From the IMG/VR virus record IMGVR_UViG_3300021399_000006, positions 1-14,127 of that record: a DNA stretch of 14,127 nt. One strand, given 5' to 3'. The stretch's first letter is position 1. Each line of letters begins with the position of its first letter. This stretch comes from a virus. Made by a program: the position numbers and the translations under genes. This document shows positions 1-14,127 of the stretch, piece by piece. The notes beneath the pieces were generated by a model that saw only the letters and a program-made list of their open reading frames with translations, did not search any database and was not told the origin of the DNA.

Positions 1-138
1 CCCATTCACATCAGGGGCTTTAGGTCTCACTGTATGTAGCCGGATTCACCCTTCCTATCCCCCACTCATACAGGATGGTTGATCGTTTTTATACCGCATC
101 TCCATTCTACGGTCAACTGAGCATTTGGCTCAGTTCAA

Positions 139-220
139 GCCAGCAATAGGATTTGAACCTATATCGTATTAGGCCTTACACTCCTTGGGGGAGCCGCTTT
201 ACCAATTAAGCTATACTGAC
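139..220 (-). tRNA. tRNA-like, class II length (82 nt), irregular anticodon arm; possible pseudogene
   Basis: T-arm ATAGG-TTCAAAT-CCTAT (146-162). Acceptor GTCAGTA/TGCTGGC pairs 7/7 with two G.U. D-arm GCTT/AAGC. The anticodon stem only folds with a 5-nt loop (CCCAA). The long variable region is about 18 nt. Confidence 0.4.
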
Positions 221-231
221 ATTTTTTTAGC

Positions 232-302
232 AGGGCCGGCGGGGTTCGAACCCACAAATGCAGGAATCAAAATCCTGTGTCTTACCGTTTGACTACGGCC
301 CT
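232..302 (-). tRNA. tRNA-Gln (anticodon TTG)
   Basis: Full cloverleaf: acceptor AGGGCCG/CGGCCCT, D-stem GTC/GAC, anticodon stem CAGGA/TCCTG with loop TTTTGAT, T-arm GTGGG-TTCGAAC-CCCGC, discriminator G. Confidence 0.85.
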
Positions 303-322
303 GTATACAAGAGACATTATTA

Positions 323-393
323 GTAGACCACGGGATTCGAACCCGTATATCAAAATTCGCAGTTTTGTATCTTATCCATTAGATTAAATCCAT
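323..393 (-). tRNA. tRNA with anticodon GCG (Arg); weak acceptor stem
   Basis: T-arm ACGGG-TTCGAAT-CCCGT (330-346). Anticodon stem CAAAA/TTTTG with loop CTGCGAA. D-stem ATCT/AGAT. The acceptor ATGGATT/GGTCTAC has an A1xC72 mismatch and three G.U pairs. Confidence 0.5.
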
Positions 394-439
394 TAATTTT
401 TTTTATTGCTGTGTGTCTCTTTATCAACTTTCTAAATAT

Positions 440-468
440 ATTATAATAAAAATTTTTATTTTTTTCAA
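440..468 (-). promoter_or_regulatory. sigma70-type promoter TTGAAA-17-TATAAT
   Basis: -35 at 463-468 and -10 at 440-445 (reverse complement), exact 17-nt spacer; drives leader and tRNAs at 393-139. Confidence 0.65.
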
Positions 469-472
469 ATAA

Positions 473-546
473 GCACAGAGTGGGATTTGAACCCACGAAT
501 AACGGTTTTGCAGACCGTTGCGGTAACCAGGCTGCGCCATCCGTGC
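473..546 (-). tRNA. tRNA-Cys (anticodon GCA)
   Basis: Acceptor GCACGGA/TCTGTGC, U8 and G9 present, anticodon stem ACGGT/ACCGT with loop CTGCAAA, T-arm GTGGG-TTCAAAT-CCCAC (480-496). Confidence 0.85.
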
Positions 547-587
547 AAAAAAGGTATGAAACATATAAATTTCACACCCCTTTTAAA

Positions 588-776
588 TTAATCAGCTGAT
601 TTTGCTTCAATATATTTAGGTTTAATTATAACTCGTTTTCGTAACGCATGAGTTGTCTGGAACATGCGGAAACGTGCTTCCCGCCTTGCTTCTTCTCGTT
701 CTTTTTTATCCTCAATATCATTAACAGGATTAAAAGACTCTAGGGCATTAGTGCCTACTGTTTTCCATTTAGACAT
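588..776 (-). CDS. hypothetical small protein (62 aa, basic/acidic)
   Basis: ORF with SD AAAGGAG about 8 nt upstream of ATG, TAA stop, co-directional with the operon. Confidence 0.6.
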   Translation of the reverse strand: MSKWKTVGTNALESFNPVNDIEDKKEREEARREARFRMFQTTHALRKRVIIKPKYIEAKSAD

Positions 777-788
777 TAATTTACTCCT

Positions 789-1175
789 TTAGTTAAGAAA
801 ACCTTCAAGAATTTTTACAAATTCATTACGGGTGATAGGGGTTGCCGCAGGTCTCTTTTCTTCTTTTGTCTCTTTTGTCTTTTTCTCTGAAGGCTGTTCT
901 AGAATTACTTCTACTAAATCTGCCAACCAAGGGGTTTCCTTCTCATATGTTTTAATATACTCAACAACTTCTTTGTTAAGAGCTTCAATCTTATCCTCAA
1001 GTCTTGCTCTTGCAAAAGCCTTTTCTGCTTCAAACTGTTTACGCTTTTCTGCTTCTTTACGACGTTTCTCTTCCGCTTCTGCCTCTGCCTTTTTTCTTTC
1101 ACTATCAAATTCGGCTTCAATACATTCTTTTTCTGAATCAAAAAACTCATCCAGAATTTCACTATAAAATTTCAT
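789..1175 (-). CDS. hypothetical E/K-rich coiled-coil protein (128 aa)
   Basis: ORF; SD GAGGAAAAAAGA-ATG; TAA stop; charged heptad-like repeats (AEAEAEEKRRKEAEKRK). Confidence 0.65.
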   Translation of the reverse strand: MKFYSEILDEFFDSEKECIEAEFDSERKKAEAEAEEKRRKEAEKRKQFEAEKAFARARLEDKIEALNKEVVEYIKTYEKETPWLADLVEVILEQPSEKKTKETKEEKRPAATPITRNEFVKILEGFLN

Positions 1176-1215
1176 TCTTTTTTCCTCTCTTTTTAAAATA
1201 TTTTATTAACGAAAG

Positions 1216-1288
1216 GTGGCTAACGGGACTTGAACCCGTAACAAGCGGTACCACAAACCGCTGGACTACCAAATTGTCCTATAACCAC
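1216..1288 (-). tRNA. tRNA-His (anticodon GTG)
   Basis: T-arm ACGGG-TTCAAGT-CCCGT (1223-1239). Anticodon stem GCGGT/ACCGC with loop TTGTGGT. D-stem GGAC/GTCC. Acceptor GTGGTTA/TAGCCAC. Discriminator C, as expected for His. Confidence 0.85.
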
Positions 1289-1291
1289 AGC

Positions 1292-1365
1292 TGGAGTGAC
1301 AGGATTTGAACCTGCGATACCGTGATCCCAAATCACGTGCCTTAACCAAACTAGACTACACCCCA
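1292..1365 (-). tRNA. tRNA-Pro (anticodon TGG)
   Basis: T-arm GCAGG-TTCAAAT-CCTGT (1299-1315). Anticodon stem CGTGA/TCACG with loop TTTGGGA. Acceptor TGGGGTG/CACTCCA. Confidence 0.85.
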
Positions 1366-1387
1366 ATATACAAGACACATAAATAAG

Positions 1388-1411
1388 TATTGATCTACCC
1401 ATTGATCTATT
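1388..1411. repeat. tandem direct repeat ATTGATCTAccc / ATTGATCTAttt
   Basis: Two adjacent 9/12-nt identical units between the T-arm element and tRNA-Pro. Confidence 0.4.
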
Positions 1412-1425
1412 TTGTTTTTCCTGGC

Positions 1426-1487
1426 AACAAAAATGGGATTTGAACCCATAACATATACTTTAGAGTATAAATTGCTGTATGTGTCTT
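1426..1487 (-). ncRNA. truncated tRNA-like element (T-arm plus 3' acceptor-like tail plus hairpin; no D-arm or 5' acceptor)
   Basis: T-arm ATGGG-TTCAAAT-CCCAT (1433-1449) preceded by the hairpin TATAC-TCTAAA-GTATA, whose 6-nt loop contains CUA. Upstream box AAGACACATACAGCAAT. No complementary 5' acceptor strand is found. Confidence 0.4.
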
Positions 1488-1499
1488 ATTATTAAATTA

Positions 1500-1733
1500 T
1501 TAACTTAACATAGCAAAATCTATAAATTTTTTTATATCATCTGCATTATAACAAACTAATTCCATTTCAGGAATGTCTGAATCTTCAAACATTTTAGCAA
1601 AAGCAATATATTGAGTAAGACGACTCTTTAGATTTAATCTATCGCCTTCTCCTGTTACTAATTCAACTTTTCCTGTACATTTGTCAACTGTTTCAAAAAA
1701 CTTTTCAATATCACTAATATGATATAACTTCAT
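1500..1733 (-). CDS. hypothetical protein (77 aa)
   Basis: ORF with SD AAAAGGAGAATAA-ATG; TAA stop. Confidence 0.6.
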   Translation of the reverse strand: MKLYHISDIEKFFETVDKCTGKVELVTGEGDRLNLKSRLTQYIAFAKMFEDSDIPEMELVCYNADDIKKFIDFAMLS

Positions 1734-1854
1734 TTATTCTCCTTTTATATAATCTCTATAAGCACAATATTCATCAAATGTTCCTTTGAATCCATTATTA
1801 ACAGCTTTAAGATATTCTTTGTTTAAAACAACTGAAAAATTAGTTTCCTACTAA

Positions 1855-2154
1855 TTAACTTGCATTACCGATTGCTAACTCATATTCTCTTTCCCTTTCT
1901 GCCATTGCGACAAGGCGTTTTACATCTGAATGATACCAATGTTTACCACCTCGTCTACCTTTTTCTGCCCCAAAAGCAGGTCTATGCTTTTTAGTTTTCC
2001 CGCTACAAAGAGGACAAGAGCAATGAACTTTATTCTTACTATATTGATGCAAATTATTATACCATGAGAAATGGTAAACTTGTTCTGAAATATTTCTTTT
2101 TCTAATTGCTTTTGTTACGCTATTGTGTCTTTTTTCTGCCAAAGTTCTACACAT
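1855..2154 (-). CDS. hypothetical basic Cys/His-containing protein (100 aa)
   Basis: ATG at 2154 is preceded by AAAGGAG at optimal spacing. The track ORF 1855..2307 extends upstream only through a TTG codon across the T-arm element, and that frame is closed by TAA at 2344-2346. Confidence 0.65.
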   Translation of the reverse strand: MCRTLAEKRHNSVTKAIRKRNISEQVYHFSWYNNLHQYSKNKVHCSCPLCSGKTKKHRPAFGAEKGRRGGKHWYHSDVKRLVAMAEREREYELAIGNAS

Positions 2155-2200
2155 AATAAACTCCTTTGAAACTTGATTAACGAAACATTTAACAATTAGC

Positions 2201-2224
2201 GGTGCGAGAGGGATTCGAACCCCC
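2201..2224 (-). ncRNA. T-arm plus 3' acceptor strand of a split/giant tRNA-like structure (see finding at 2201-2750)
   Basis: GGGGG-TTCGAAT-CCCTC followed by TCGCACC. There is no local anticodon or D arm. The matching 5' acceptor GGTGCGG lies about 545 nt upstream on the same strand. Confidence 0.45.
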
Positions 2225-2278
2225 AGCCCAATTAAGAGCAACGGTTTTGAAACGGTTTTAGAAGTTTTTAATAACCTC

Positions 2279-2683
2279 CTAAAAAATATAATCTTTAGCA
2301 AAATCAATATTTGCTGTTTGTCCAGATTTTGTTGGTAAAACTCTTAAAGTTTTTTCTACAAAACCATCTTTAGGAGCAGGATATAAATAAAAAATACCAT
2401 CTTTTTCAGTCATAAAAAAATCTATTTCTTTATTTGTATATTTCATTCTTTTGTTTCCTGCTCCTGTTGAATGCTGGCTATATCCATTAAAAACAAATGC
2501 ACTATGCTCTTCATCCTTCCATCGAGATGTTTTAATTTGTATTTTTAATAGTTTATTATCTACATCTAAAATAAAATCATATCTTGCATTATCAAACAGT
2601 GGTTTAGAAACAATAAAACCTGCTTCTATACATTTTAAGAAACATTTTTGCTATGTCATTGCTCCTTGAATTTGTGTATTCAT
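2279..2683 (-). CDS. hypothetical protein (about 134 codons) containing one internal in-frame TAG (2651-2653); possible nuclease-like (D..D.K) core
   Basis: Reading frame ATG(2683) NTQIQGAMT-TAG-QKCFLKCIEAGFIVSKPLFDNARYDFILDVDNKLLKIQIKTSRWKDEEHSAFVFNGYSQHSTGAGNKRMKYTNKEIDFFMTEKDGIFYLYPAPKDGFVEKTLRVLPTKSGQTANIDFAKDYIF. It is open for about 122 codons after the TAG in AT-rich DNA and ends at TAG 2279-2281 (next TAA 2258-2260). No well-spaced SD; the start is uncertain. Confidence 0.45.
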
Positions 2684-2934
2684 ATTATTATTTTTAAAAC
2701 TAATAATTCCGTTTCAAGACCGCACCTCCTCCCCACTAAGGTACCGCACCATATCAAGGCTTAAAAAGTTTCATTTTCTCTTTTTTCAGAGGTCAATTCC
2801 TATTAAGAATAAGAAATAGAAAACTTTCAAATAAAAGAAACTTGTCTATTTTACGACCAAAATTCTCCTAAGAATCATGTTAAATCTTGTAATTTTCAAC
2901 CCATTAAAAATAAAATTGCCGTATAAGCCTTAGC

Positions 2935-3021
2935 GCGGATGAGTGGATTCGAACCACCGGACCCAAATGTAGGATCAATACCTTAGCAGGGTACCGCATT
3001 AAACCTCTCTGCCACATCCGC
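2935..3021 (-). tRNA. tRNA-Ser (anticodon GCT), class II
   Basis: Perfect 7-bp acceptor GCGGATG/CATCCGC. T-arm GGTGG-TTCGAAT-CCACT. Anticodon stem TACC/GGTA with loop CTGCTAA. Long variable arm. Length 87 nt. Confidence 0.85.
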
Positions 3022-3032
3022 AAATAGGTAAC

Positions 3033-3104
3033 CACCCTTCTGGGATTCGAACCCAGGACTGTTGATTTAGAGTCAACTGACTTAGACCGCTTGTCGAAAG
3101 GGCG
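3033..3104 (-). tRNA. suppressor tRNA, anticodon CTA (reads UAG amber)
   Basis: Acceptor CGCCCTT/AAGGGTG (one G.U), U8 present, D-stem GAC/GTC, anticodon stem GTTGA/TCAAC with canonical 7-nt loop C-U-CUA-A-A, T-arm CTGGG-TTCGAAT-CCCAG, discriminator G. D-loop and discriminator are similar to the neighbouring tRNA-Gln. Confidence 0.8.
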
Positions 3105-3203
3105 TCACCAAGACAGATTAAAATTTGCTTAAATTAGATTAACAGTCCAATACAAAAATTAAAATAAATTGCTGTTTCTGTCTTTCTTTCATCTTATAAA
3201 TAT

Positions 3204-3232
3204 ATTATATAATAATTTTTTTAAAAAATCAA
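3204..3232 (-). promoter_or_regulatory. sigma70-type promoter TTGATT-17-TATAAT, followed by the conserved ATGAAAGAAAGACAGAAACAGCAA leader
   Basis: -35 at 3227-3232, -10 at 3204-3209. The first gene downstream is the CTA suppressor tRNA. Confidence 0.65.
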
Positions 3233-3243
3233 AAAATTTTTAA

Positions 3244-3354
3244 ATGCGGGCAAGGATTTGCACCTTACATGCCCTAATAGCCTTTATGCTACCAGACGTA
3301 TCGGATTATACTGGGGCTTACCTTATAAGCGTCTACCTATTCCGCCACCGCATT
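3244..3354 (-). tRNA. tRNA-Leu-like gene of aberrant length (about 111 nt) with an extra insertion between D-arm and anticodon arm; possible pseudogene or intron-like insert
   Basis: 5' region AATGCGG-T-G-GCGGAATAGGTAGACGC nearly matches the 5' region of the bona fide tRNA-Leu(CAA) here. T-arm TAAGG-TGCAAAT-CCTTG with acceptor 3' CCCGCAT. The middle region only folds as TTATA..(13 nt)..TATAA plus GTAGC-ATAAAG-GCTAT (6-nt loop). Confidence 0.4.
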
Positions 3355-3358
3355 TTTA

Positions 3359-3601
3359 TTATATTTTATATTTATATTCACTTATAATTTTACCATTTTC
3401 ATCAATATGCCATGTATGAGCACATTTAAAAGGATAATTTGCCTTATAAAGATTAATCCAAATATTTCCTCTTGGACAAAACCAATTTGCATAATTATAT
3501 CTTGCATTCATAGCATCATCAAAAGAAGTAAAAAGTTCTTTTATGCTCCCAGAATGTTCGTCATCTTCTGTTTCAATAGCATAAATATCAAAATTTAACA
3601 T
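3359..3601 (-). CDS. hypothetical protein (80 aa)
   Basis: ORF; SD AAAGGAG 9 nt upstream; follows tRNA-Val after a 40-nt gap (co-transcribed). Confidence 0.6.
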   Translation of the reverse strand: MLNFDIYAIETEDDEHSGSIKELFTSFDDAMNARYNYANWFCPRGNIWINLYKANYPFKCAHTWHIDENGKIISEYKYKI

Positions 3602-3640
3602 AAAGCAAATCTCCTTTAAAATATATTTTTAAAACGAAAT

Positions 3641-3713
3641 GCATGATATAGGATTTGAACCTATGACCCTTTCGGTGTAAACGAAATGCTCATCCCAGCT
3701 GAGCTAATCATGC
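3641..3713 (-). tRNA. tRNA-Val (anticodon TAC)
   Basis: Perfect acceptor GCATGAT/ATCATGC. D-stem GCTC/GAGC. Anticodon stem TTTCG/CGAAA with loop TTTACAC. T-arm ATAGG-TTCAAAT-CCTAT. Confidence 0.9.
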
Positions 3714-3888
3714 ATATTGGCGGGAATCTCTTTCCCGCCTAATCCGACTTTTGAATTTCACAGGTATCGGGGAGGGACCAGGGATTAAATCCAGCCCACC
3801 TTAATACTTAGTTTTCAAACATTCCTCACGAAAACTAAAAAAATGGAGGGTCTTCCATATCGCACGTGCATATTGATATAGAATAAGT

Positions 3889-3963
3889 GGACCTTATGGG
3901 AATCGAACCCATCTGACTACTAGTGTGCAAAACTAGTGACCACCCCTTGCAGTCCCAAAGCCC
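3889..3963 (-). tRNA. tRNA-Ala (anticodon TGC)
   Basis: Acceptor GGGCTTT/AAGGTCC with the G3.U70 Ala identity pair. Anticodon stem CTAGT/ACTAG with loop TTTGCAC. T-arm ATGGG-TTCGATT-CCCAT. Confidence 0.8.
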
Positions 3964-4172
3964 AGTACTAAGAGGCCTGATTACCCTCTTTATAGCAGTT
4001 TGATCCTGCTTGCCAATGACGTTATAGGTCCGCCGCCCGCACATTTATTTGCTAAAACACGGTTTCCAGGGTATCTTCGTATAGTCACATTACCGCAAAG
4101 AGATATATACCTTTATCATATTATAGACGCGTTTCTATAATATTCTCCCAAAATTTCTATTGTACATAGAAT

Positions 4173-4245
4173 ACTACGAAGTGGATTCGAACCACTGACG
4201 ACTTCCTTATCAGAGAAGCATTCTAACCTACTGAATTATCGTAGT
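4173..4245 (-). tRNA. tRNA-Ile (anticodon GAT)
   Basis: Perfect acceptor ACTACGA/TCGTAGT. Anticodon stem CTTCT/GGAAG with loop CTGATAA. T-arm AGTGG-TTCGAAT-CCACT. Confidence 0.85.
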
Positions 4246-4422
4246 AAATAAGGGTTAAAAAGAAAGGAAGAAACGCGTTTTTCTTTCATTGAATAACCTT
4301 TCTCAATTAACCATCTAATTTTTATGCCTGCCTAGCCTTACACTAGAATATTACATATGTGATAAGTTGTTCTGTTGCATCGCTATTTTGAACTATCCCT
4401 GTCTCCTTATCAAAATTAGACA

Positions 4423-4445
4423 CCTGCGCGGCCGCAGGCTTTTTG
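4423..4445. terminator. GC-rich hairpin (CCTGCG-CGGC-CGCAGG, contains GCGGCCGC) with a T5 run on the plus side and a weaker T-run on the minus side; probable end of the tRNA-Tyr/Phe transcription unit
   Basis: On the plus strand the stem is followed by CTTTTTG. On the minus strand it is preceded by AAAAAG and followed by TGTCTAATTTTG. It lies 16 nt downstream of the tRNA-Tyr 3' end. Confidence 0.45.
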
Positions 4446-4461
4446 CGGCGTCCCGCTTAGT

Positions 4462-4544
4462 CCTGGCGGAGGGAATCGAACCCACTCGGTGCCGAAGCCA
4501 GCAGATTTACAGTCTGCCCCGTCTCCTTAGCGGTCTACCCCAGG
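4462..4544 (-). tRNA. tRNA-Tyr (anticodon GTA), class II
   Basis: Anticodon stem GCAGA/TCTGC with loop CTGTAAA. Variable-arm hairpin present. T-arm GTGGG-TTCGATT-CCCTC (one mismatch). Acceptor CCTGGGG/CGCCAGG (one mismatch). Length 83 nt. Confidence 0.8.
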
Positions 4545-4552
4545 ATAAAAGT

Positions 4553-4625
4553 GCTCAGAACTAGATTTGAACTAGTAACGCGAGGATCTTCAGTCCTCCG
4601 CTCTACCTATTAGAGCTATCTGAGC
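4553..4625 (-). tRNA. tRNA-Phe (anticodon GAA)
   Basis: Perfect acceptor GCTCAGA/TCTGAGC. Anticodon stem GAGGA/TCCTC with loop CTGAAGA. T-arm ACTAG-TTCAAAT-CTAGT. Confidence 0.9.
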
Positions 4626-4703
4626 ATAACAAGACATATAATTTGTAAATAATGACTGTTTACGAGACAGTTGTCTTAACCATTTGACTACATAAGCGAC
4701 AAT

Positions 4704-4766
4704 GCTTGTGACAGGATTCGAACCTGTAAACTTACAAAAGTAAGAAGTTGCTGTATATGTCTTTGT
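4704..4766 (-). ncRNA. truncated tRNA-like element (T-arm plus 3' tail plus tetraloop hairpin), paralogous to the element at 1426-1487
   Basis: T-arm ACAGG-TTCGAAT-CCTGT (4711-4727), hairpin CTTAC-TTTT-GTAAG, upstream box AAGACATATACAGCAAC (15/17 identical to the box at 1471-1487). No 5' acceptor. Confidence 0.4.
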
Positions 4767-4834
4767 TTTTATGGATTCTTTATTTTATTTGATGTTGGTG
4801 CAGTTATTTGCCTAAATCCATATAAGCCAACAAT

Positions 4835-4914
4835 AATTCTGGTGGGATTCGAACCCACATGCCTATGACCGCAGGGTTTGAGCCTACTGCGTATACCAAT
4901 TCCGCCACAGAATC
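4835..4914 (-). tRNA. tRNA-Leu (anticodon CAA), class II
   Basis: 5' GATTCTG-T-G-GCGGAATTGGTATACGC. Anticodon stem GTAGG/CCTGC with loop CTCAAAC. 12-nt variable arm. T-arm GTGGG-TTCGAAT-CCCAC. Acceptor 3' CAGAATT. Confidence 0.85.
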
Positions 4915-4916
4915 GT

Positions 4917-4999
4917 AGTGGCGAAGGGATTCGAACCCTCAATCCTCTAACGGCAACGGATTTTAAGTCCGTCATGAATACCAGTTCCATCACGCCACC
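4917..4999 (-). tRNA. tRNA-Leu (anticodon TAA), class II
   Basis: Anticodon stem ACGGA/TCCGT with loop CTTAAAA. 15-nt variable arm. T-arm GAGGG-TTCGAAT-CCCTT. Acceptor GGTGGCG/CGCCACT. It nearly abuts the preceding tRNA. Confidence 0.85.
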
Positions 5000-5093
5000 A
5001 TATAAATTTAAACGGTTATAAAGATAAAATTTTATTATTTTTCTATTTTAACAGGGAAAAATAATAAAAGCCTGTCTAACAATTTAATAATGA

Positions 5094-5462
5094 TTACTGC
5101 TCACGAGAAGCAATAAACGCATCATATTCATCCTTGAAGCACCAAGCAAATCCATAAGCGTTATGGGTCTTAGTTCTTCCGTTTAAGGCATCGCCTACGC
5201 CTGACTTACCTTCCTGGCCAATTGCGGCAAGGGCTTCCTTCTGGGTTGCAAACTCTGCAATAACTGCATAAGTCTCGGGGTCAAGCTGAAGAACACCTGA
5301 CTTATTCGGACTCTTACGCTTACGAGCAGCTGCCGCCTCATCTTCCTCAATACGAGCAAGCATTGCTCGCAAAGCATCCATAGTCTGCTCACGAATACCT
5401 TCATTTACATCTGTAGCATTTTCAAAGTAGAAAATCAAACCTTCAATCTGTTTCTTATCCAT
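5094..5462 (-). CDS. hypothetical protein (122 aa)
   Basis: ORF with SD AAAAGGAGTAAAT-ATG, driven by a perfect-consensus promoter at 5504-5532; TAA stop. Confidence 0.7.
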   Translation of the reverse strand: MDKKQIEGLIFYFENATDVNEGIREQTMDALRAMLARIEEDEAAAARKRKSPNKSGVLQLDPETYAVIAEFATQKEALAAIGQEGKSGVGDALNGRTKTHNAYGFAWCFKDEYDAFIASREQ

Positions 5463-5503
5463 ATTTACTCCTTTTTACTCTTGTTTTTAATTTCTATAAA
5501 TAT

Positions 5504-5532
5504 ATTATACTAAAAATTTTTTATCTTGTCAA
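5504..5532 (-). promoter_or_regulatory. perfect-consensus sigma70 promoter TTGACA-17-TATAAT
   Basis: -35 at 5527-5532, -10 at 5504-5509; upstream of the SD-ATG at 5462. Confidence 0.75.
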
Positions 5533-6179
5533 CAATTGAATAACTTAATTATATCTATGAATAACACCCCTTCGGGTTGCTGGCAATAACCTTCTCTTAT
5601 ATTCGACCACCAAGGAGACATACCTGAGCGGTTAGGAGCGACCTAAACGCTATATGCCCCATCTGTTCAAGACAGATAAATCTTGTAGAGGACTTTGCAT
5701 ACCTCTAACTTTCAGCTACCTTTCAGAAAATTTACATAATAACTTGTATAAGAAGTTATTCAAATTTTGTTGTCTACGCACTTTTAGCCTACTCGTACCT
5801 TGACCCAATCTTATACACGACTTCCGCCGCTTCATGTGCGCTAACCCCTTATGGAAATTCCAAGGTTTGCAAAGTTTTCCACGCTTCACCTAACTTGGAT
5901 TAGTGCTCTCGTTAAAGAACCCTATATTATGGAGTCGATTGGAACAGTGTCTTTAAGAGCGATTACCCCAGTGCTATTGACTAAACCATTTCTTTAGACC
6001 TGGCGTTTTATACGTCACCGCATAAAAACTTTTTTCCTAAGAAAGTATCCTTCCTTATTCTGGTTATTCGTAAAGCCAATACCTCAGCGTCATGGAATTG
6101 ACGTTTATCACTGAGTTGCTTCATAAATATAACTAAATTATTCAATTGTCAATGTTCTTTTGTTGATAATTCAACATAG

Positions 6180-6249
6180 ATCTCAAGTAGGGGTCGAACC
6201 TACATCTTACCTTTTTACCAGGCGCGCACTACCATTATGCTACTGAGAT
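6180..6249 (-). tRNA. tRNA-like gene with atypical anticodon loop GGUAAAA (possible anticodon TAA, G at position 33)
   Basis: Good acceptor ATCTCAG/TTGAGAT. U8-A9. D-stem GCAT/GTGC. T-arm GTAGG-TTCGACC-CCTAC. The anticodon stem pairs 4/5. Confidence 0.45.
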
Positions 6250-6461
6250 TCCTTATATATGTATATCATCAGAAAGGAAGTGAATATAAAAAGGGATAAA
6301 CCCATTTATAACAATGCAAAGGGGAGTAGCGTGTAGCACTATCATCTAATGTTCTCCCTAGTTTTTGTTTTGGAATTTCGCCAAAAGGACTTATTTGAAA
6401 TATTGGAGAGTGCTTAGTCTCGTAATCCTTCACAGGGCTTTTTCGGTAGCCTGAACCTAAT

Positions 6462-6534
6462 AGCGGAAGTGGGATTTGAACCCACGTGATACGGCGTATG
6501 AGACCGCGCTGGTACCTCTCCAGTCCATTCCGCA
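6462..6534 (-). tRNA. tRNA-Met (anticodon CAT; whether initiator, elongator or Ile-lysidine type is undetermined)
   Basis: T-arm GTGGG-TTCAAAT-CCCAC. Anticodon stem GCGGT/GCCGT (two G.U) with loop CTCATAC. D-stem CTGG/CCAG. The acceptor has a mismatch at pair 1-72. Confidence 0.65.
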
Positions 6535-6635
6535 ATATTAATCAAGACAGTTTAAAATATAGCCTATTTAATCCTAAATTTAAATGCTTGTATTTTTTCT
6601 TTTGTTGCTGTTTCTGTCTTTCATTTTCTATAAAT

Positions 6636-6664
6636 ATTATAACAAAAATTTTTTTAAAAATCAA
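6636..6664 (-). promoter_or_regulatory. promoter TTGATT-17-TGTTATAAT (extended -10)
   Basis: -35 at 6659-6664, -10 at 6636-6641, TGn present; drives leader and tRNA-Met. Confidence 0.7.
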
Positions 6665-6854
6665 ATACGGCATATGCATCTACCGTATTAGTCTATGAGG
6701 TTTACCACTCCGCTTACCATTTTCCGCTCAGGTTAGCTTTAGGAGCCTTGCTGATGTTTTTACACTTTACTAAAACACCCTTTCCGACAGACAAACAGTC
6801 AACCTACTTATATTAATATCATTGCCTAAGGTTATATTAATACTTTTGGTAAAT

Positions 6855-6910
6855 GCTCTATGCAGGAGTCGAACCTACACTCACAAAAGTAAGTTCCATC
6901 ATAATAGAGC
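6855..6910 (-). ncRNA. 56-nt 'armless' tRNA-like minihelix (perfect 7-bp acceptor plus T-arm plus one tetraloop hairpin; no D-arm or anticodon arm)
   Basis: GCTCTAT ... CTTAC-TTTT-GTGAG ... GTAGG-TTCGACT-CCTGC ... ATAGAGC with discriminator A. The hairpin resembles the one in the 4704-4766 element. Confidence 0.45.
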
Positions 6911-6990
6911 AGTCTCCTTTTATCTCTCTTATATTTTAAAAGAGCCAAAAAATAATGCTCTGAAAGAGGAAAGTATGATACGTATCAAGT

Positions 6991-7063
6991 AGCCCCTGGG
7001 GGAATTGAACCCACCATCTTGACCTTGAAAGGGTCATATCCTGTCCTTTTAGAAGAAGGAGCC
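6991..7063 (-). tRNA. tRNA-Glu (anticodon TTC)
   Basis: Anticodon stem TGACC/GGTCA with loop CTTTCAA. T-arm GTGGG-TTCAATT-CCCCC. Acceptor GGCTCCT/AGGGGCT (all paired including G.U). Confidence 0.85.
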
Positions 7064-7087
7064 ATATTTCTTTCATTTTCTATAAAT

Positions 7088-7116
7088 ATTATAATAAAAA
7101 TTTTTTAAAATTGCAA
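7088..7116 (-). promoter_or_regulatory. promoter TTGCAA-17-TATAAT
   Basis: -35 at 7111-7116, -10 at 7088-7093; drives tRNA-Glu(TTC) after a leader of about 20 nt. Confidence 0.65.
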
Positions 7117-7266
7117 ATAAAAATGGGAACTTATATTAACACTGTATTCCCCGATAGGTTTGCGCGCGCCTTATCTTACAGCGGGTTTTCCTAAGTCCAG
7201 TTTTCCTTGTCATTCCCATGCATTTATATACCGAGCGAGAACAGACGCGGTTAAGGAGTCCTTAGT

Positions 7267-7346
7267 AGGGGACACGGGATTCGAACCCGCACGCACAGGG
7301 CACTAGATCCTAAGTCTAGGGTGGCTACCAGTTACACCAATCCCCC
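7267..7346 (-). tRNA. tRNA-Leu (anticodon TAG), class II
   Basis: Acceptor GGGGGAT/GTCCCCT. U8-G9. D-stem GTG/CAC. Anticodon stem CTAGA/TCTAG with loop CTTAGGA. 12-nt variable arm. T-arm GCGGG-TTCGAAT-CCCGT. Confidence 0.85.
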
Positions 7347-7518
7347 ATATAAGATAGATGCTTGCCATAGCTTTAGCCCCGCTCGGGTATCTATCGTACC
7401 CTATCTCATTCACTGGAGATGCAGTAAAAGTTTTACCTTTATAACTTTCAAAGATACTTATTCTTCATCGGGCGATAAGTTCTTACCTGACCCTTTCCCT
7501 TCACACCTCAAAGGATGA

Positions 7519-7585
7519 AAACGGCTATAATTTCAATAGCTTAGATTTACATTGGCAGAAGGTAAATCAACTTCTTTTTTACTCA
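7519..7585. repeat. copy A of a repeat unit (cggctat ... caaNagcttagatttaca ... gaaggtaaaNcaacttc)
   Basis: Shares three blocks with copy B. It contains the hairpins GCTAT-AATTTCA-ATAGC and AGAAG-GTAAATCAA-CTTCT. Confidence 0.5.
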
Positions 7586-7651
7586 AATTTTAAAAATTTG
7601 AGATAGGTTGAACCTACACCTAAAGGACTTTTTCCAGTAACACCCCAAAAA

Positions 7652-7740
7652 GCAAAGCGGCTATCTATCAACAGCTTAGATTTACACATTCAACCGAGTA
7701 GATTTACGTATTAATAGGAAGGTAAACCAACTTCCTAACG
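7652..7740. repeat. copy B of the same repeat unit, with a 31-nt internal insertion that duplicates tagatttac
   Basis: Hairpin GGAAG-GTAAACCAA-CTTCC, where the outer pair covaries (A-T in copy A, G-C in copy B). Confidence 0.5.
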
Positions 7741-7810
7741 ACCTAGTGGGGAATTGAACCCCAGTCTCTCGGGCGACAACCGAGTGTAATTACCTTTATA
7801 CGACAAGGCC
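7740..7810 (-). tRNA. tRNA-Asp (anticodon GTC)
   Basis: Anticodon stem CTCGG/CCGAG with loop TTGTCGC. T-arm TGGGG-TTCAATT-CCCCA. Acceptor GGCCTTG/CTAGGTC (one mismatch). Confidence 0.8.
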
Positions 7811-7997
7811 AAACATTAAATAGCTTAGTCCATTTTTTAGGCTCCCTTCTCACTATAGCCTAAATTCCACAGGTCATGACTCCTGTTACTCTAGGTAGTT
7901 CACTTATAGTCTCACTCTCCCGACTTCCGTGATTTGGCGGACTCTCTTGATGTTTATGTACACTATTAAATCAAGTCACCATTGCTATTTATGTAGC

Positions 7998-8070
7998 GGG
8001 AGCAGTAGGACTTGAACCTACGACATTTTGCTTAACAGGCAAACGCTCTAACCAACTGAGCTATACTCCC
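7998..8070 (-). tRNA. tRNA-Asn (anticodon GTT)
   Basis: Acceptor GGGAGTA/TGCTCCC. Anticodon stem TTTGC/GCAAA with loop CTGTTAA. T-arm GTAGG-TTCAAGT-CCTAC. Confidence 0.9.
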
Positions 8071-8217
8071 AAATATGAGGGTTACTTTGCGTCTTTTATA
8101 CCGTTTCCCACTAAAGCCACATATCATACGCCTCCAGACGGGCTAATAAGAATCGAGTCTGGATATTTGGTTATGCCGGTGGTAGTTTACCCTCAAAATC
8201 CATGATAACGGTTTAAT

Positions 8218-8291
8218 CATCCCTACAGGCTTTGAACCTGTGTTTCAAGATTGAGAATCTTGTGTCCTGAACCGAACTAGACGAAGGGACG
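8218..8291 (-). tRNA. tRNA-Glu (anticodon CTC)
   Basis: Anticodon stem CAAGA/TCTTG with loop TTCTCAA. T-arm ACAGG-TTCAAAG-CCTGT. Acceptor CGTCCCT/AGGGATG. Confidence 0.85.
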
Positions 8292-8300
8292 ACGGATTAA

Positions 8301-8480
8301 TTAATCCTCATATTCTGTACGTACATAATTTTCTGTTACTTCATAATGAAATCCAATCCAACCAAATCTATCTTCCAAAAATCTCACAGCAGAGAAGCCT
8401 TTAACAAATGTTATATGCTTCTGATTTACATCGTCAAGATACTCAACCATGTAGATAACAGCTGTTCTCTCATTTTTCAT
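8301..8480 (-). CDS. possible small protein (59 aa, below the ORF-track cutoff)
   Basis: ATG at 8480; frame MKNERTAVIYMVEYLDDVNQKHITFVKGFSAVRFLEDRFGWIGFHYEVTENYVRTEYED-TAA; immediately downstream of promoter 8547-8575; weak SD. Confidence 0.35.
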   Translation of the reverse strand: MKNERTAVIYMVEYLDDVNQKHITFVKGFSAVRFLEDRFGWIGFHYEVTENYVRTEYED

Positions 8481-8546
8481 AATTTAAAGACCCCCTGAAA
8501 TGATATTTTTTAGTTTGTTTTCGTTTCTTTTTCTTACGATATAAAT

Positions 8547-8575
8547 ATTATAACAAAAAATTTTTAAAAATTCAA
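8547..8575 (-). promoter_or_regulatory. promoter TTGAAT-17-TGTTATAAT (extended -10)
   Basis: -35 at 8570-8575, -10 at 8547-8552; drives the small ORF and tRNA-Glu(CTC). Confidence 0.7.
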
Positions 8576-8711
8576 ATGATATGCAGTGTGCTGTTACGCC
8601 AAAGGGAAGTCAGTCCTTACCAGTTACGGGGTGACTTTCTACTTCTATTTAATAAAATAGTCCCACTCTTTAAAAGATGGATGCTTTTAATCCTACTTTC
8701 TGCATATAAGA

Positions 8712-8783
8712 GCCACCGACAGGAATTGAACCTGCAACCGTTTGATTACAAATCAAATGCACTACCAATTGTGCTACGGGGGC
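8712..8783 (-). tRNA. tRNA-Thr (anticodon TGT)
   Basis: Anticodon stem TTTGA/TCAAA with loop TTTGTAA. T-arm GCAGG-TTCAATT-CCTGT. Acceptor GCCCCCG/CGGTGGC (one mismatch). Confidence 0.8.
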
Positions 8784-8787
8784 ATAT

Positions 8788-8860
8788 GGACCACTAGGGA
8801 TTTGAACCCTAATCTGACAGATTAAGAGTCTGCTATGTTAACCGTTAACACCAGTAATCC
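8788..8860 (-). tRNA. tRNA-Lys (anticodon CTT)
   Basis: Anticodon stem GCAGA/TCTGT with loop CTCTTAA. T-arm TAGGG-TTCAAAT-CCCTA. Acceptor GGATTAC/GTGGTCC (G.U pairs). D-stem GTGT/ACAT. Confidence 0.8.
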
Positions 8861-8971
8861 AGGTTTATACAGCTACATACCTACCATATCAGGACATTAC
8901 TCTGATTTTCTAAGTTTTTCTTAGTATGCTATGATTTTACATTATATGGTGTTATGGACCCTGTATAACAT

Positions 8972-9043
8972 GCGCTCGATGGGACTCGAACCCACGTTAC
9001 CTTGATTAAAAGTCAAGTGCTTAATCCGCTAAGCTACGAGCGC
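8972..9043 (-). tRNA. tRNA-Lys (anticodon TTT)
   Basis: Perfect acceptor GCGCTCG/CGAGCGC. Anticodon stem CTTGA/TCAAG with loop CTTTTAA. T-arm GTGGG-TTCGAGT-CCCAT. Confidence 0.9.
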
Positions 9044-9118
9044 AAAAGATATTTAATTGTTTTTTGCCCGTAGGCTTACGTTTTCGTTTCATTTCTTATC
9101 TCCTCACTTTGTATAAAT

Positions 9119-9147
9119 ATTATAACAAAAATTTTTTAAAATTTCAA
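9119..9147 (-). promoter_or_regulatory. promoter TTGAAA-17-TGTTATAAT (extended -10)
   Basis: -35 at 9142-9147, -10 at 9119-9124. It sits immediately downstream of tRNA-Gly(GCC) and drives tRNA-Lys(TTT). Confidence 0.7.
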
Positions 9148-9152
9148 ATAGA

Positions 9153-9223
9153 GCAGACAGTGGGAATTGAACCCACATTTTTAGCTTGGCAAGCTAACAT
9201 ATTAACCGTTATATTATGCCTGC
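9153..9223 (-). tRNA. tRNA-Gly (anticodon GCC)
   Basis: Anticodon stem TTAGC/GCTAA with loop TTGCCAA. T-arm GTGGG-TTCAATT-CCCAC. Acceptor GCAGGCA/TGTCTGC. Confidence 0.85.
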
Positions 9224-9422
9224 TTGAACTAGGATATATGGCCAACTTACCTAGATATATTTTAGCACCTTACCAGGCCGCACTTATTTTAACTACCATG
9301 TGCAATTGGCTGCGTGTTCACCATACCGCTGGATTGATTTACGATCAACAACGCCTTATCTCTACATTACGAATTGAATAAGGTACAATCGTCTCTATTA
9401 AAACTCAACCCGAGAAGGGTCA

Positions 9423-9493
9423 GCCCCATGTGGGAATCGAACCCACCTATCTAGCTTGGAAGGCTAGCATTTTAGCCGATAAATCAATGGGAC
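9423..9493 (-). tRNA. tRNA-Gly (anticodon TCC)
   Basis: Anticodon stem CTAGC/GCTAG with loop CTTCCAA. T-arm GTGGG-TTCGATT-CCCAC. Acceptor GTCCCAT/ATGGGGC. Confidence 0.85.
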
Positions 9494-9500
9494 AAATATA

Positions 9501-9561
9501 AAAACTATTAAAGGTACGTTTTATTGGTGGTATGCGGCACGCACTTGATTTTAATAGTTTT
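9501..9561 (-). promoter_or_regulatory. leader stem-loop (12-bp inverted repeat AAAACTATTAAA / TTTAATAGTTTT enclosing a GC hairpin) followed by a T-rich tract, between the promoter and the tRNA-Gly genes; possible attenuator or processing site
   Basis: Perfect 12-bp arms at 9501-9512 and 9550-9561, nested inner stem TGCG/CGCA, then TTTTTATATTT before the tRNA 5' end. Confidence 0.4.
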
Positions 9562-9577
9562 TATTTGTTATGATAAT

Positions 9578-9606
9578 ATTATATCAAAAATTTTTGAACA
9601 TTTCAA
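9578..9606 (-). promoter_or_regulatory. promoter TTGAAA-17-TGATATAAT
   Basis: -35 at 9601-9606, -10 at 9578-9583; followed by a structured leader before tRNA-Gly(TCC). Confidence 0.7.
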
Positions 9607-9620
9607 ATTATTTTTGACCT

Positions 9621-9920
9621 TTATTTAGAAAAATAATATTTCCGCCAATATTTATAAAAATCTTTTAATGTAGGATAATCTTCTTGCCAAAGACTTCCAT
9701 TAGGGTCAGGATGAAAATATTCAAATTTAGCATCTTCCCATGTCCATCTACTAATATAATCATGTATATCGTAGGTTTCAAAGACTTTTTTATAAGCATT
9801 TCCATTAGGAAGAATAATTTTACTATGTCTTATTTTTTTATTTGCGTGTCTTTTGTTTCTTTTAGGAGTAGGCGTACGCCCATCTGTATAAACAGGATTC
9901 TTTTTATATGAACGTGACAT
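9621..9920 (-). CDS. hypothetical basic protein (99 aa)
   Basis: ORF; SD AAAGGAGAAAAAT-ATG; TAA stop. Confidence 0.65.
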   Translation of the reverse strand: MSRSYKKNPVYTDGRTPTPKRNKRHANKKIRHSKIILPNGNAYKKVFETYDIHDYISRWTWEDAKFEYFHPDPNGSLWQEDYPTLKDFYKYWRKYYFSK

Positions 9921-9936
9921 ATTTTTCTCCTTTAAT

Positions 9937-10007: not shown

Positions 10008-10143
10008 TACTTATCATACCATTTCACCTGTTTTGTGGCTAGCTATTCCACCCCACCGTGCTCATCACTATTATTTTAATCATTCCCTTGGTAATACTCT
10101 TTGATAAGTATAATACATATTTTGACGTCTTGTATGTATTAGT

Positions 10144-10217: not shown

Positions 10218-10254
10218 AAACGGGATATTTTTTATCCCTTAACTTTATAATAAT

Positions 10255-10926: not shown

Positions 10927-10955
10927 ATTTTACTAAAATTTTTCAATTTTTTCAA
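10927..10955 (-). promoter_or_regulatory. promoter TTGAAA-17-TAAAAT
   Basis: -35 at 10950-10955, -10 at 10927-10932; upstream of the CDS at 10590-10898. Confidence 0.5.
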
Positions 10956-10980
10956 ATCGCATATTTTTTTGATTTAACGA

Positions 10981-11655
10981 CTAACTTAATTCAATTATAT
11001 TATCACAGATTTTACAAGAAGTAGGTTCTATTAAACATCTTCTATTGCATCTTGAACGATATTCTCCAAATTGGGGAAGAATCGTACTATTAATTTCCTC
11101 TCCATCGTAATTATAAATTATAATTTTTAATTTTCCATCCCATTTATGTTTTATTCCGTAAATTTCATATAAAGCATTATATGCTTTGTTTTCATTTACA
11201 TCCATAAATTCAAAGGTATCTATAAATTGAGCATAGTAAGGAATATCTTCTGGACGAATAAAGAAATTTTTTATAGTATCTATACTATCCCATTTTTTCT
11301 CACAATAATTGCAAAAACATCTTAGGCGGATTCCCTTTTTTTTAGTAAAATCACTTGTAATTTTCATCATAAAAGCTAAATTTCCGCCAATTCTGATGTC
11401 TGTTACATTTAAAGAACAAAATCCAAGCAGATTTTCCCAATCACAGCAAATATATTGATAATAATGAGGAATATTTAATGAATTAAATTTTTCTTCTATT
11501 TCTTTATTATAAATAAAACTACGTACCGATATATTAGGACAGATTTCCGCCAATGCACCTAAAATTGTAAAATCTTTTTCATCTAAAGGTGCTGTTGTAA
11601 TAATATTAATACGATAATCTTTATATTCAGAAATAAAATCATATAATTCTTTCAT
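10981..11655 (-). CDS. hypothetical Cys-rich protein (224 aa); terminates with TAG
   Basis: Long ORF with multiple CxC/CxxC clusters; weak SD; stop codon is TAG (10981-10983). Confidence 0.65.
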   Translation of the reverse strand: MKELYDFISEYKDYRINIITTAPLDEKDFTILGALAEICPNISVRSFIYNKEIEEKFNSLNIPHYYQYICCDWENLLGFCSLNVTDIRIGGNLAFMMKITSDFTKKKGIRLRCFCNYCEKKWDSIDTIKNFFIRPEDIPYYAQFIDTFEFMDVNENKAYNALYEIYGIKHKWDGKLKIIIYNYDGEEINSTILPQFGEYRSRCNRRCLIEPTSCKICDNIIELS

Positions 11656-11755
11656 TTTAGGTTTATACCTAATACTAATTTCTATTTTATCTTTATTGAA
11701 ATATTTAAAATTCCTATAAAATGGTATCTAAAATTTCATCCTAATCCTATCCTTT

Positions 11756-12394
11756 CTATTCTCGGAATCCTGAAAAGTCAATAATAATAGGATGACCATT
11801 TTTATATCCTACATTATCATAAGTTAAATCATCATCCCATTTAAGTTTTTTAATTAAAGTAAGAAATTCTTTAAACTCTTTTGGCCCACAATCTTTTAAT
11901 AAATCTATACACCAATCTGTATTTAAATCGTAATAACAATGATGTTTATGTAAAAAAGAATCCATTTTTATTGTTTTCTCTTTTGTTTTTTTGTAAGAAT
12001 TGTTAAAAGGGGTGCATTTTTCTTGTAAATAAATAGGATAATCGTCTACATAACCAATAAAAATAGTTTCCGCAAAAAATTTTTTAAAACGTGTAGAACA
12101 AATATCTTCATATCGTTCTACTTCTACATAGCAATAATCCCATTCGCATTCGGAACTTGCTCCAGTAAAATTACAAAAATTACCTTCGTAACATCCCTGA
12201 AAAGGAATTTTTATAACATAATCCTTATTTCTTGGTAAAATTGCAAGTTTCGTTGCTCCAAAATCATAATTAAAAATATATCCTTTATCAAAAAGATACG
12301 AAACCAATTCATCTACTCTTGTATCATCAAAAGCAGGATTTAAAAAGTTAAAACCTTTAAACATATTAAGAATTTCATCTTCATTAAATGTCAT
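11756..12394 (-). CDS. hypothetical protein (212 aa); terminates with TAG
   Basis: Long ORF; SD AAAAGGAG 12 nt upstream; promoter 12428-12456; stop codon TAG (11756-11758). Confidence 0.7.
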   Translation of the reverse strand: MTFNEDEILNMFKGFNFLNPAFDDTRVDELVSYLFDKGYIFNYDFGATKLAILPRNKDYVIKIPFQGCYEGNFCNFTGASSECEWDYCYVEVERYEDICSTRFKKFFAETIFIGYVDDYPIYLQEKCTPFNNSYKKTKEKTIKMDSFLHKHHCYYDLNTDWCIDLLKDCGPKEFKEFLTLIKKLKWDDDLTYDNVGYKNGHPIIIDFSGFRE

Positions 12395-13711: not shown

Positions 13712-14127
13712 TTATTTATAAAAAGTTTTATTTAAATTATTTTTTGAGCAACTGATTACCATTTTATCAGAATAACAATCAATATAACATCTACCATTTT
13801 CATATGCCATCATAACGATAGCACCTTTATTAATAAAGACTTTATATGTTGATATACGGCCTCCGCTTGATTTACCATGATGATAATTAGATAATCCTAC
13901 TTTAGGTTTAGCGGCATTAATTTGTACTATCTTAACTCCATTTCTATCAGAGTGCCACTAAAGTTTAAATACATCACATTTTAAAGCACTACCTTTTTCT
14001 TTTACGAGTACGTCTATTGCTTCATACGATAGGTCTCCCGCAGTAAAAAATTTCCATCCATTTAAATTAAACATTAATGCAACAGACATCATGTTAACAA
14101 AATGGTGGTCATCAAATTGTTTAAGTT
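13712..14127 (-). CDS. 3' part of a gene that starts beyond the window end; about 138 codons open with one internal in-frame TAG (13958-13960)
   Basis: Frame ...LKQFDDHHFVNMMSVALMFNLNGWKFFTAGDLSYEAIDVLVKEKGSALKCDVFKL-TAG-WHSDRNGVKIVQINAAKPKVGLSNYHHGKSSGGRISTYKVFINKGAIVMMAYENGRCYIDCYSDKMVISCSKNNLNKTFYK-TAA. The stop lies just before the terminator hairpin. No TAA or TGA occurs across the whole span. Confidence 0.45.

Follow-up and report, generated by a model that had tools for sequence, protein, structure and literature searches.

Here we describe a transfer RNA (tRNA) gene with the anticodon CUA, of the amber-suppressor type, on a 14,127-nucleotide (nt) stretch of viral DNA (positions 1 to 14,127 of IMG/VR record IMGVR_UViG_3300021399_000006, hereafter the window), and we propose that this tRNA derives from a tRNA-Glu and decodes UAG as Glu in the phage that carries it. 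We consider this reading probable (roughly 0.8). It draws together a conserved suppressor gene, the use of TAG as a sense codon, the position of these TAGs at columns occupied by Glu in homologous proteins, and a tRNA architecture of the Glu type. We also lean slightly towards the wider view that UAG alone means Glu in this lineage and in at least one unrelated 174-kb phage, which would be a code undescribed for viruses or prokaryotes.

The CUA tRNA gene lies at 3032..3104 on the minus strand. ARAGORN reported a gene of 73 nt with anticodon CTA, and the Rfam tRNA model RF00005 matched it over its full length with 56.4 bits (E 3.8e-10; gathering score 29 bits) and zero non-canonical pairs. An earlier note on this DNA had placed the gene at 3033-3104; its end was correct and its start one base off. 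The same note had described a 7-nt anticodon loop, C-U-C-U-A-A-A, in a canonical cloverleaf, and both programs agree with that description, ARAGORN keeping CUA as the anticodon. With U33, a purine at 37 and a central CUA, the loop is that of an amber suppressor. The structure parse gave C1-G72, G2·U71, a 3-bp D-stem, a D-loop of 9 nt (AGCGGUCUA), a variable loop of 4 nt (AGUC) and discriminator G; CCA is not encoded.

A search of IMG/VR with the exact suppressor sequence gave no match, and homologs in that collection were recovered by relaxed structural patterns. The comparison then covered five distinct CUA homologs, taken from phage contigs that are partly related and partly unrelated, namely those of the window, L016, L014/L015/L017, L066/L068 and L067. 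Pairing was retained in 99 of the 100 stem cells, compensatory double changes occurred at 13 of 20 pairs, and the CUCUAAA loop was invariant; the gene is therefore real, and selection maintains it as a tRNA with CUA as its anticodon. Its immediate surroundings are also conserved. The closest IMG/VR relative, L067 (86% identity in a 286-amino-acid (aa) protein), keeps the order tRNA-Val, suppressor, tRNA-Ser(GCU). The CUA tRNA of that relative (13637-13713) differs widely in sequence from that of the window, which suggests that the suppressor has been replaced or is evolving fast.

ENA rumen contigs of 125-133 kb, among them sheep rumen ERZ28612969 scaffold_144 (132,990 bp) and ERZ12302851 NODE_124, encode the proteins of the window. 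Two differences in 11,634 bases (at 9941 and 9934) separate the window from contig L001, while contig L002 is identical to the window and has an upstream flank identical to that of L001. On the strength of this agreement the flanks were joined to the window, giving a stretch of 32.6 kb, about a quarter of a genome of ~133 kb, to which the following codon and gene counts apply. Open reading frames (ORFs) of 100 aa or more held 15.2 kb with TAG as a stop and 22.3 kb with TAG read as sense. In-frame TAGs numbered 50 and fell in 15 of the 39 genes, leaving 24 TAG-free; when TAG was read, the 39 genes ended at TAA (32) or TGA (7), and Pfam domains ran across the TAGs. A recoded phage is marked by TAGs within the frames of conserved genes, by a gain in capacity and by termination at the other stops, and together these establish, at the level of sequence, that this phage uses TAG as a sense codon. 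The view in the earlier note that this is a genuine amber-suppressor-type tRNA thus gains support from the fold, the covariation and, indirectly, the 50 in-frame TAGs, which interrupt conserved genes that are otherwise intact.

The TAG-rich genes comprise those for a GH114 protein and a CW_7-metallo-beta-lactamase (MBL), both cell-envelope enzymes, an opposite-strand block of small genes, and a homing endonuclease. Eight TAGs make up 57% of the Glu-class codons of the GH114 gene. The CW_7-MBL gene has 580 codons with nine sense TAGs, and its 3' part lies in the window at 13712..14127 (minus strand), with a sense TAG at 13958-13960. The endonuclease, of the PDDEXK_5 (I-Ssp6803I-like) type, is encoded at 2258..2683 on the minus strand by an ORF of 141 codons when TAG is read; sense TAGs stand at 2651-2653 (codon 11) and 2279-2281 (codon 135), and the true stop is the TAA at 2258-2260. 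Its product matched Pfam PF11645 over residues 1-132, across the first TAG, with 87.7 bits (8.9e-25; cut-off 26.1). The ORF that the earlier note had drawn at 2279-2683, with an in-frame TAG, is hence a real PDDEXK_5 gene carrying its TAG at 2651-2653.

Residues aligned with TAG and the architecture of the suppressor

The GH114 protein was aligned with 45 IMG/VR homologs that are TAG-free at the DNA level, 37 of them unique. At seven of its eight TAG columns the homologs carry Glu in 34/36, 30/36, 28/36, 28/37, 15/37, 37/37 and 28/36 sequences, with GAA or GAG as the codon behind it, and at the remaining column Lys is found in 11/37. The nine TAG columns of the MBL protein were assessed with distant homologs, among which Glu leads at four, Asp at two, and Arg, Pro and Gln at one each. 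For the endonuclease, 104 of 108 aligned homologs have Glu at the column of codon 11, and the column of codon 135 has Glu in 43 and Asp in 18. Averaged over the GH114 and MBL proteins, TAG columns are composed of Glu (0.50), Asp (0.14), Lys (0.07) and Gln (0.05). Internal controls from the genome's own codons gave Glu 0.36 at GAA/GAG columns, and Gln 0.37 with Glu 0.11 at CAA/CAG columns; column log-likelihoods at TAG were +28.6 for Glu, -16.5 for Asp and -18.6 for Gln. Across the three conserved proteins Glu has the majority at 13 of 19 TAG columns (background 3.6%; binomial P about 4e-15) and Gln at one.

Comparison at the DNA level points the same way. The relative L007, 49% identical, has GAA or GAG opposite six of the eight GH114 TAGs, and in close relatives TAG and GAA/GAG alternate at the same columns. 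Close database homologs (at least 68% identity) do show Gln at TAG columns. We rejected this as support for Gln, as inspection of the DNA revealed that these Gln residues are themselves TAG codons. Protein P0007 on L069 (10001-10756) is a direct case: of its nine Gln residues, six come from TAG codons to which table 15 was applied, and four of these six stand at columns where Glu is conserved. In public collections table 15 was likewise used for the 580-aa and 141-aa products of L001/L010.

A second phage, L016, a 174-kb IMG/VR record that is clearly TAG-recoded, has a homologous suppressor with an identical D-arm; no proteins common to L016 and the phage of the window were detected. In a 906-aa protein of L016, 12 TAG columns covered by 110 distant homologs had Glu 0.27, Asp 0.23, Ser 0.16 and Gln about 0.04, two columns being near-invariant Glu and two near-invariant Asp. 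The TAG columns of L016 thus appear acidic and not Gln-like, in a pattern less clean than that of the main phage.

The tRNA itself was examined through ARAGORN structure parses and an alignment of the suppressors with Glu and Gln tRNAs of phage loci. Overall similarity is uninformative, since the best match of the suppressor among the other tRNAs of the window is tRNA-Lys(UUU), with 50 identities, and structural features were therefore compared instead. All phage Gln(UUG) tRNAs examined have A1-U72 and a D-loop 2 nt shorter than that of the suppressor, and the four that were aligned have a 5-nt variable loop, one base more than the Glu type; the contrast tRNA of the window, tRNA-Gln(UUG) at 230..302 (minus strand; ARAGORN), shows all three features. 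The suppressors have a long D-loop in 5/5, a 4-nt variable loop in 4/5 and G2·U71, a pair found also in several Glu tRNAs, in 4/5; their first pair is strong or G·U in 5/5 and A-U in 0/5. The window suppressor shares C1-G72, G2·U71, U8-C9 and the 4-nt variable loop with the tRNA-Glu(CUC) at 8216..8292 (minus strand; ARAGORN). A search of GTDB genomes with the suppressor D-arm led to a tRNA-Glu(UUC) in L065 whose positions 8-26 and variable loop (AGUC) match those of the suppressor exactly, and in L014, L015 and L017 the suppressor stands 129 nt downstream of adjacent tRNA-Glu(UUC) and tRNA-Glu(CUC) genes. In sum, the weak first pair, short D-loop and 5-nt variable loop of tRNA-Gln are absent from the suppressor, which lacks nucleotide 47 and has the augmented D-arm with extra D-loop bases of tRNA-Glu. 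Absence of nucleotide 47 and an augmented D-helix are major Glu determinants, and a GluRS (glutamyl-tRNA synthetase) that charges only tRNAs with both has been described (PMC9976931). Bacterial GatCAB recognizes U1-A72 and rejects tRNA-Glu through G1-C72 and an extra D-loop base (PMC2811023).

These comparisons do not bear out the Gln identity, and with it genetic code 15, that the earlier note had favoured. TAG does not align with Gln in standard-code homologs (Glu 0.50 against Gln 0.05), and the features of the tRNA are of the Glu type. The hints on which that suggestion was built do not tell Glu from Gln. The AAGCGGT D-loop also occurs in tRNA-Glu genes of related loci, and the discriminator is G, A or C among the homologous suppressors. 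The neighbouring tRNA-Gln(UUG) is 2.7 kb away and probably belongs to a separate transcription unit, because a copy of the promoter motif described below (at 468) intervenes.

Several observations nevertheless weigh against Glu. One MBL TAG column has a Gln/His majority, and L007 has a real Gln codon, not TAG, opposite it; several TAG columns of L016 hold Ser, Thr or Asn. The solved PDDEXK_5 member 2OST (I-Ssp6803I), the closest structure to the endonuclease ORF (6.5e-12), has Gln at the endonuclease TAG column, so this single site tolerates Gln. The amino acid at TAG is, moreover, inferred from alignments only. On the side of the tRNA, the anticodon determinants of E. coli tRNA-Glu are U34, U35, C36 and A37, of which the suppressor has U35 and A37; its C34 and A36 replace U34 and C36, which are strong Glu determinants in E. 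coli, and charging by GluRS is therefore not guaranteed. C34 is also present in the phage's own tRNA-Glu(CUC), and A36 is unavoidable in any CUA tRNA. The 11-24 pair is A-U and not the E. coli determinant U-A, as is likewise the case in the bona fide tRNA-Glu(UUC) of L065, and the first pair is C-G and not the G-C typical of bacterial tRNA-Glu.

Decoding of UAG and alternative explanations

We suggest that the suppressor arose from a tRNA-Glu whose anticodon changed to CUA and that it is transcribed from a phage promoter. Host GluRS would charge it with Glu despite A36, and GatCAB would ignore the charged tRNA, which has neither U1-A72 nor a small D-loop. UAG would then be read as Glu in competition with release factor 1 (RF1). 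Genes bearing TAG would need the suppressor to yield complete and active products, other genes being TAG-free; since TAG is concentrated in a subset of genes, that subset would depend on the suppressor. Such a dependence matches the regulatory model proposed for recoded phages, and a regulatory role of this kind may apply here.

Two alternatives keep a Gln component at TAG. Decoding could be ambiguous, with partial amidation or two charging enzymes giving a mixture of Glu and Gln; we consider this improbable, if the least so among the alternatives. In bacteria without GlnRS, GluRS serves tRNA-Glu and tRNA-Gln alike, Gln is tolerated at a few TAG columns, and in E. coli some Gln is inserted by synthetic tRNA-Glu(CUA) suppressors. 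Against this, the strong 1-72 pair and the additional D-loop bases of the suppressor are the two antideterminants of GatCAB, and a codon that supplies 57% of the GH114 Glu codons, invariant Glu columns included, argues for faithful insertion of Glu. Under code 15, a Gln-type suppressor charged by GlnRS, or by GluRS followed by GatCAB, would make TAG mean Gln throughout. Code 15 is the sole reassignment of TAG that has been reported in phages, a single change separates CUA from the Gln anticodon CUG, a tRNA-Gln adjoins the suppressor in L016, and both the single Gln-majority MBL column and the Gln of I-Ssp6803I at the endonuclease column are as this explanation would have them. We regard it as unlikely all the same, and a little more so than a mixture: TAG columns are unlike those of true Gln codons (Gln 0.05 against 0.37), Gln has the majority at only 1/19, TAGs stand at GH114 columns that are invariantly or almost invariantly Glu (37/37 and 34/36), the suppressor has no feature common to the phage Gln tRNAs, and most Gln residues in database proteins at these columns are TAG translated with table 15.

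The two remaining alternatives deny the tRNA a general role in reading TAG as one of the common amino acids. It might be a decoy, a pseudogene or a rare read-through factor, the TAGs marking decay or programmed truncation; 24 of the 39 genes are without TAG, and one gene may truly stop at this codon. The extent of pairing (99/100), the 13 compensatory pairs and the loop invariant in five homologs are hard to reconcile with this view, as are the conservation of TAG positions between genomes, the continuation of domains across them and their non-random placement at Glu columns, and we think it very improbable. Least probable of all is a pyrrolysine tRNA. ARAGORN does label the gene 'Pyl', and the anticodon is the only feature that fits; the program gives this label to any CUA tRNA from the codon table, and we rejected it. 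The fold is an ordinary cloverleaf with a long D-loop and 56 bits on the general tRNA model, not the atypical compact type, the TAG columns are Glu and not Lys-like, and the genes called in the 33 kb analysed include no pyl genes (pylS, pylBCD).

The proposed reading of UAG as Glu has partial counterparts in known systems. Phage-encoded CUA suppressors with patchy TAG recoding are well described in crAss-like, Lak and other phages, with TAG taken as Gln; Borges et al. saw only TAG to Gln and TGA to Trp in phages whose code differs from that of the host. Proteomics has confirmed Gln at TAG in two crAss-like phages. Some alignments of TAG with Glu were seen in the Lak study and were read as conservative substitution, and we found no report of TAG to Glu in phages in the open-access papers searched. 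The code-15 phages of the gut resemble the phage of the window in having a CUA tRNA within a tRNA cluster, a gut or rumen habitat, TAG in a subset of genes only (lysis-type and structural-type genes included) and TAA or TGA as stops; they differ in that their TAG aligns with Gln, whereas here it aligns with Glu and is accompanied by a Glu-type tRNA. Bacterial and phage tRNA-Glu share with the suppressor G2·U71, U8-C9, a 3-bp D-stem with a 9-nt loop, a 4-nt variable loop and A37, and differ from it in having UUC or CUC in place of CUA and G-C in place of C-G as the first pair (C-G being found also in the tRNA-Glu(CUC) of the window).

Outside phages, stops are read as Glu in NCBI codes 30 (peritrich ciliates) and 31 (Blastocrithidia), where UAA and UAG both mean Glu. 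As proposed here, the stops of these eukaryotes are converted by suppressors derived from tRNA-Glu; there, however, UAA and UAG change together and genome-wide, whereas in this phage the change would concern UAG only, with TAA as the main stop (32/39), patchily, and in a virus of a standard-code host. Among the amber suppressors of E. coli are supE, a tRNA-Gln with anticodon CUA, and synthetic tRNA-Glu(CUA). They demonstrate that a single anticodon change makes a UAG reader of the Glu/Gln family, but they are host mutants or constructs with partial suppression, in contrast to a natural phage gene accompanied by dozens of sense TAGs.

Transcription units, the tRNA array and neighbouring genes

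A promoter-like site, TTGATT-17-TATAAT, lies at 3204..3232 on the minus strand, ~100 nt upstream of the suppressor. A generic scan for sigma-70 hexamers found 9 sites against 8.0 +/- 2.9 by chance, from which the promoter would appear no better than chance; this was overturned by a strand-specific extended motif. Sites of the form TTGANN-N16-18-TANAAT number 10 on the minus strand of the window and 0 on the plus strand, and 9 of the 10 have in common the consensus TTGAWWTTTTAAAAAATTTTTGTTATAATATTTATA; with at most three mismatches, the extended consensus had 4 matches against 0.00 expected. On the minus strand, copies of the promoter-like motif start at 12456, 10955, 9606, 9147, 8575, 7116, 6664, 5532, 3232 and 468, that at 7116 having TTGC in its first hexamer; the plus strand has no copy. 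These strand-specific copies would therefore cut the tRNA array and the neighbouring genes into several units. In the unit starting at 3232, the suppressor is the predicted first gene, followed by tRNA-Ser(GCU) and an interrupted tRNA-Ser(UGA), and the promoter at 3204-3232 that the earlier note had assigned to it is upheld by the extended motif. Immediately upstream, at 3232-3346 (minus strand), is a 115-nt element with an acceptor, D-arm (GCGGAATAGGTAGACGC) and T-arm resembling those of tRNA-Leu and an unrecognizable middle; it is called by neither ARAGORN nor Rfam and ends exactly at the start of the promoter of the suppressor.

The tRNA-Ser(GCU) at 2933..3021 (minus strand; ARAGORN and Rfam) is 10 nt downstream of the suppressor, an order conserved in L067 and L068. 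The tRNA-Ser(UGA) at 2200..2750 (minus strand) is split into exons at 2750-2712 and 2245-2200 by an insert of 466 nt (2246-2711) that breaks the gene just after the anticodon loop. Joined, the exons form a canonical 85-nt tRNA-Ser(UGA), and we rejected on this ground the 'tRNA-Glu(ttc)' with a 464-nt intron that ARAGORN reported at 2199-2750; L068 has an intact Ser(UGA) at the equivalent relative position. The insert is nearly all endonuclease ORF, with 28 and 12 nt outside it, and its last base is A, not G. The location of the ORF inside an interrupted tRNA gene and its score above the PF11645 cut-off mark it as a homing endonuclease. The Rfam group I model had no match in the insert at E values up to 10, and no other Rfam families were found there.

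The array as a whole covers ~10 kb and holds about 30 tRNA genes and one ROOL RNA. The 28 tRNAs that ARAGORN called in the window all lie on the minus strand, and the Rfam tRNA model also had 28 matches. Besides tRNA-Glu(CUC), there is a tRNA-Glu(UUC) at 6990..7063 (minus strand) found by Rfam only (42.9 bits), whose homolog in L007 is called Glu(ttc). The ROOL RNA, at 5545-6139 (minus strand), is full length by Rfam (276.7 bits); it stands between the promoter-motif copies at 6664 and 5532 and is apparently co-transcribed with a tRNA-Met and a tRNA-like gene. Several other members of the array are unusual, all on the minus strand. The tRNA at 9936-10007, where we placed both differences between the window and L001, has an 8-nt anticodon loop, is read by ARAGORN as 'tttg' (Lys or Gln) and scores 50.8 bits with Rfam; it may decode four bases or be a degenerate tRNA resembling tRNA-Gln. 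A 71-nt 'Leu(taa)' at 6179-6249 lacks a long variable arm and U33, a 65-nt tRNA-like sequence at 4633-4697 is found by Rfam only and has a defective T-arm, and an 83-nt tRNA-Trp(CCA) at 138-220 has a variable region of 16 nt.

Two other contigs carry arrays with peculiarities of their own. L065 (1289-1361, minus strand), a 2.4-kb contig binned in an Eubacteriales metagenome-assembled genome (MAG), has a tRNA array with three Glu tRNAs and also a tRNA with anticodon UUA, of the ochre-suppressor type. L064, a 138.8-kb contig deposited as 'Methanobrevibacter sp. RUG12316', has a phage-like tRNA array in which, at 1608-1720 (plus strand), the 5' half of a Glu-like tRNA, its D-arm the same as in the window suppressor, precedes a tRNA-like insert that scores 38.3 bits with the Rfam tRNA model and has no anticodon arm. 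Mis-binning of a phage in which one tRNA is nested in another is the probable explanation.

Two genes upstream in the window bear on where TAG ends a gene. One, at 10930..11739 (minus strand), has 269 codons, is called as 269 aa in L001 and contains TAGs at 11728-11730, 10981-10983 and 10933-10935 before the TAA at 10930-10932; its homologs in L007 and L008 run past the TAG at 10981-10983, with Lys and Glu opposite. The other, at 11705..12394 (minus strand), has 212 or 229 codons, the TAG at 11756-11758 being either its stop or the first of four sense TAGs before the TAA at 11705-11707. Its acidic tail and the TAGs in it are conserved in L007, and the L008 homolog stops exactly at 11756-11758. 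The tail (11705-11758, minus strand) overlaps the start of the next gene (11705-11739) in another frame, and both readings are conserved in L007. The TAG at 11756-11758 may thus be a genuine stop in an early gene.

The source of the window is a large phage, marked by PHROG-only proteins, a 133-kb IMG/VR relative (L007) and the tRNA array; a megablast search of the whole window against GenBank phages gave no match. To judge from its sigma-70-type promoters and AGGAG ribosome sites, the phage infects a bacterium, and homologs of a GH114-SPOR protein named from Lachnospiraceae and Eubacteriales MAGs hint that this host may belong to the Firmicutes.

Implications of the proposed reading of UAG as Glu

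If UAG is read as Glu, some public 'code 15' phages would be mis-assigned, and their proteins would contain systematic Glu-to-Gln errors, conserved Glu positions included. Gene callers that use table 15 put Gln at conserved Glu positions, as seen directly for one database protein, and such errors carry over into the annotation of this phage group, the prediction of its protein structures and the mining of its enzymes. Glu and Gln differ in mass by 0.98 Da. The suppressor would also offer a natural tRNA-Glu(CUA) scaffold for genetic-code engineering. Finally, phage stop recoding has so far been treated as TAG to Gln or TGA to Trp and explained by the ease with which GlnRS and TrpRS are hijacked. 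Were UAG to mean Glu in this phage, it would be a new natural code variant reached by another route, through GluRS and escape from GatCAB, a route that may be natural in hosts that make Gln-tRNA indirectly.

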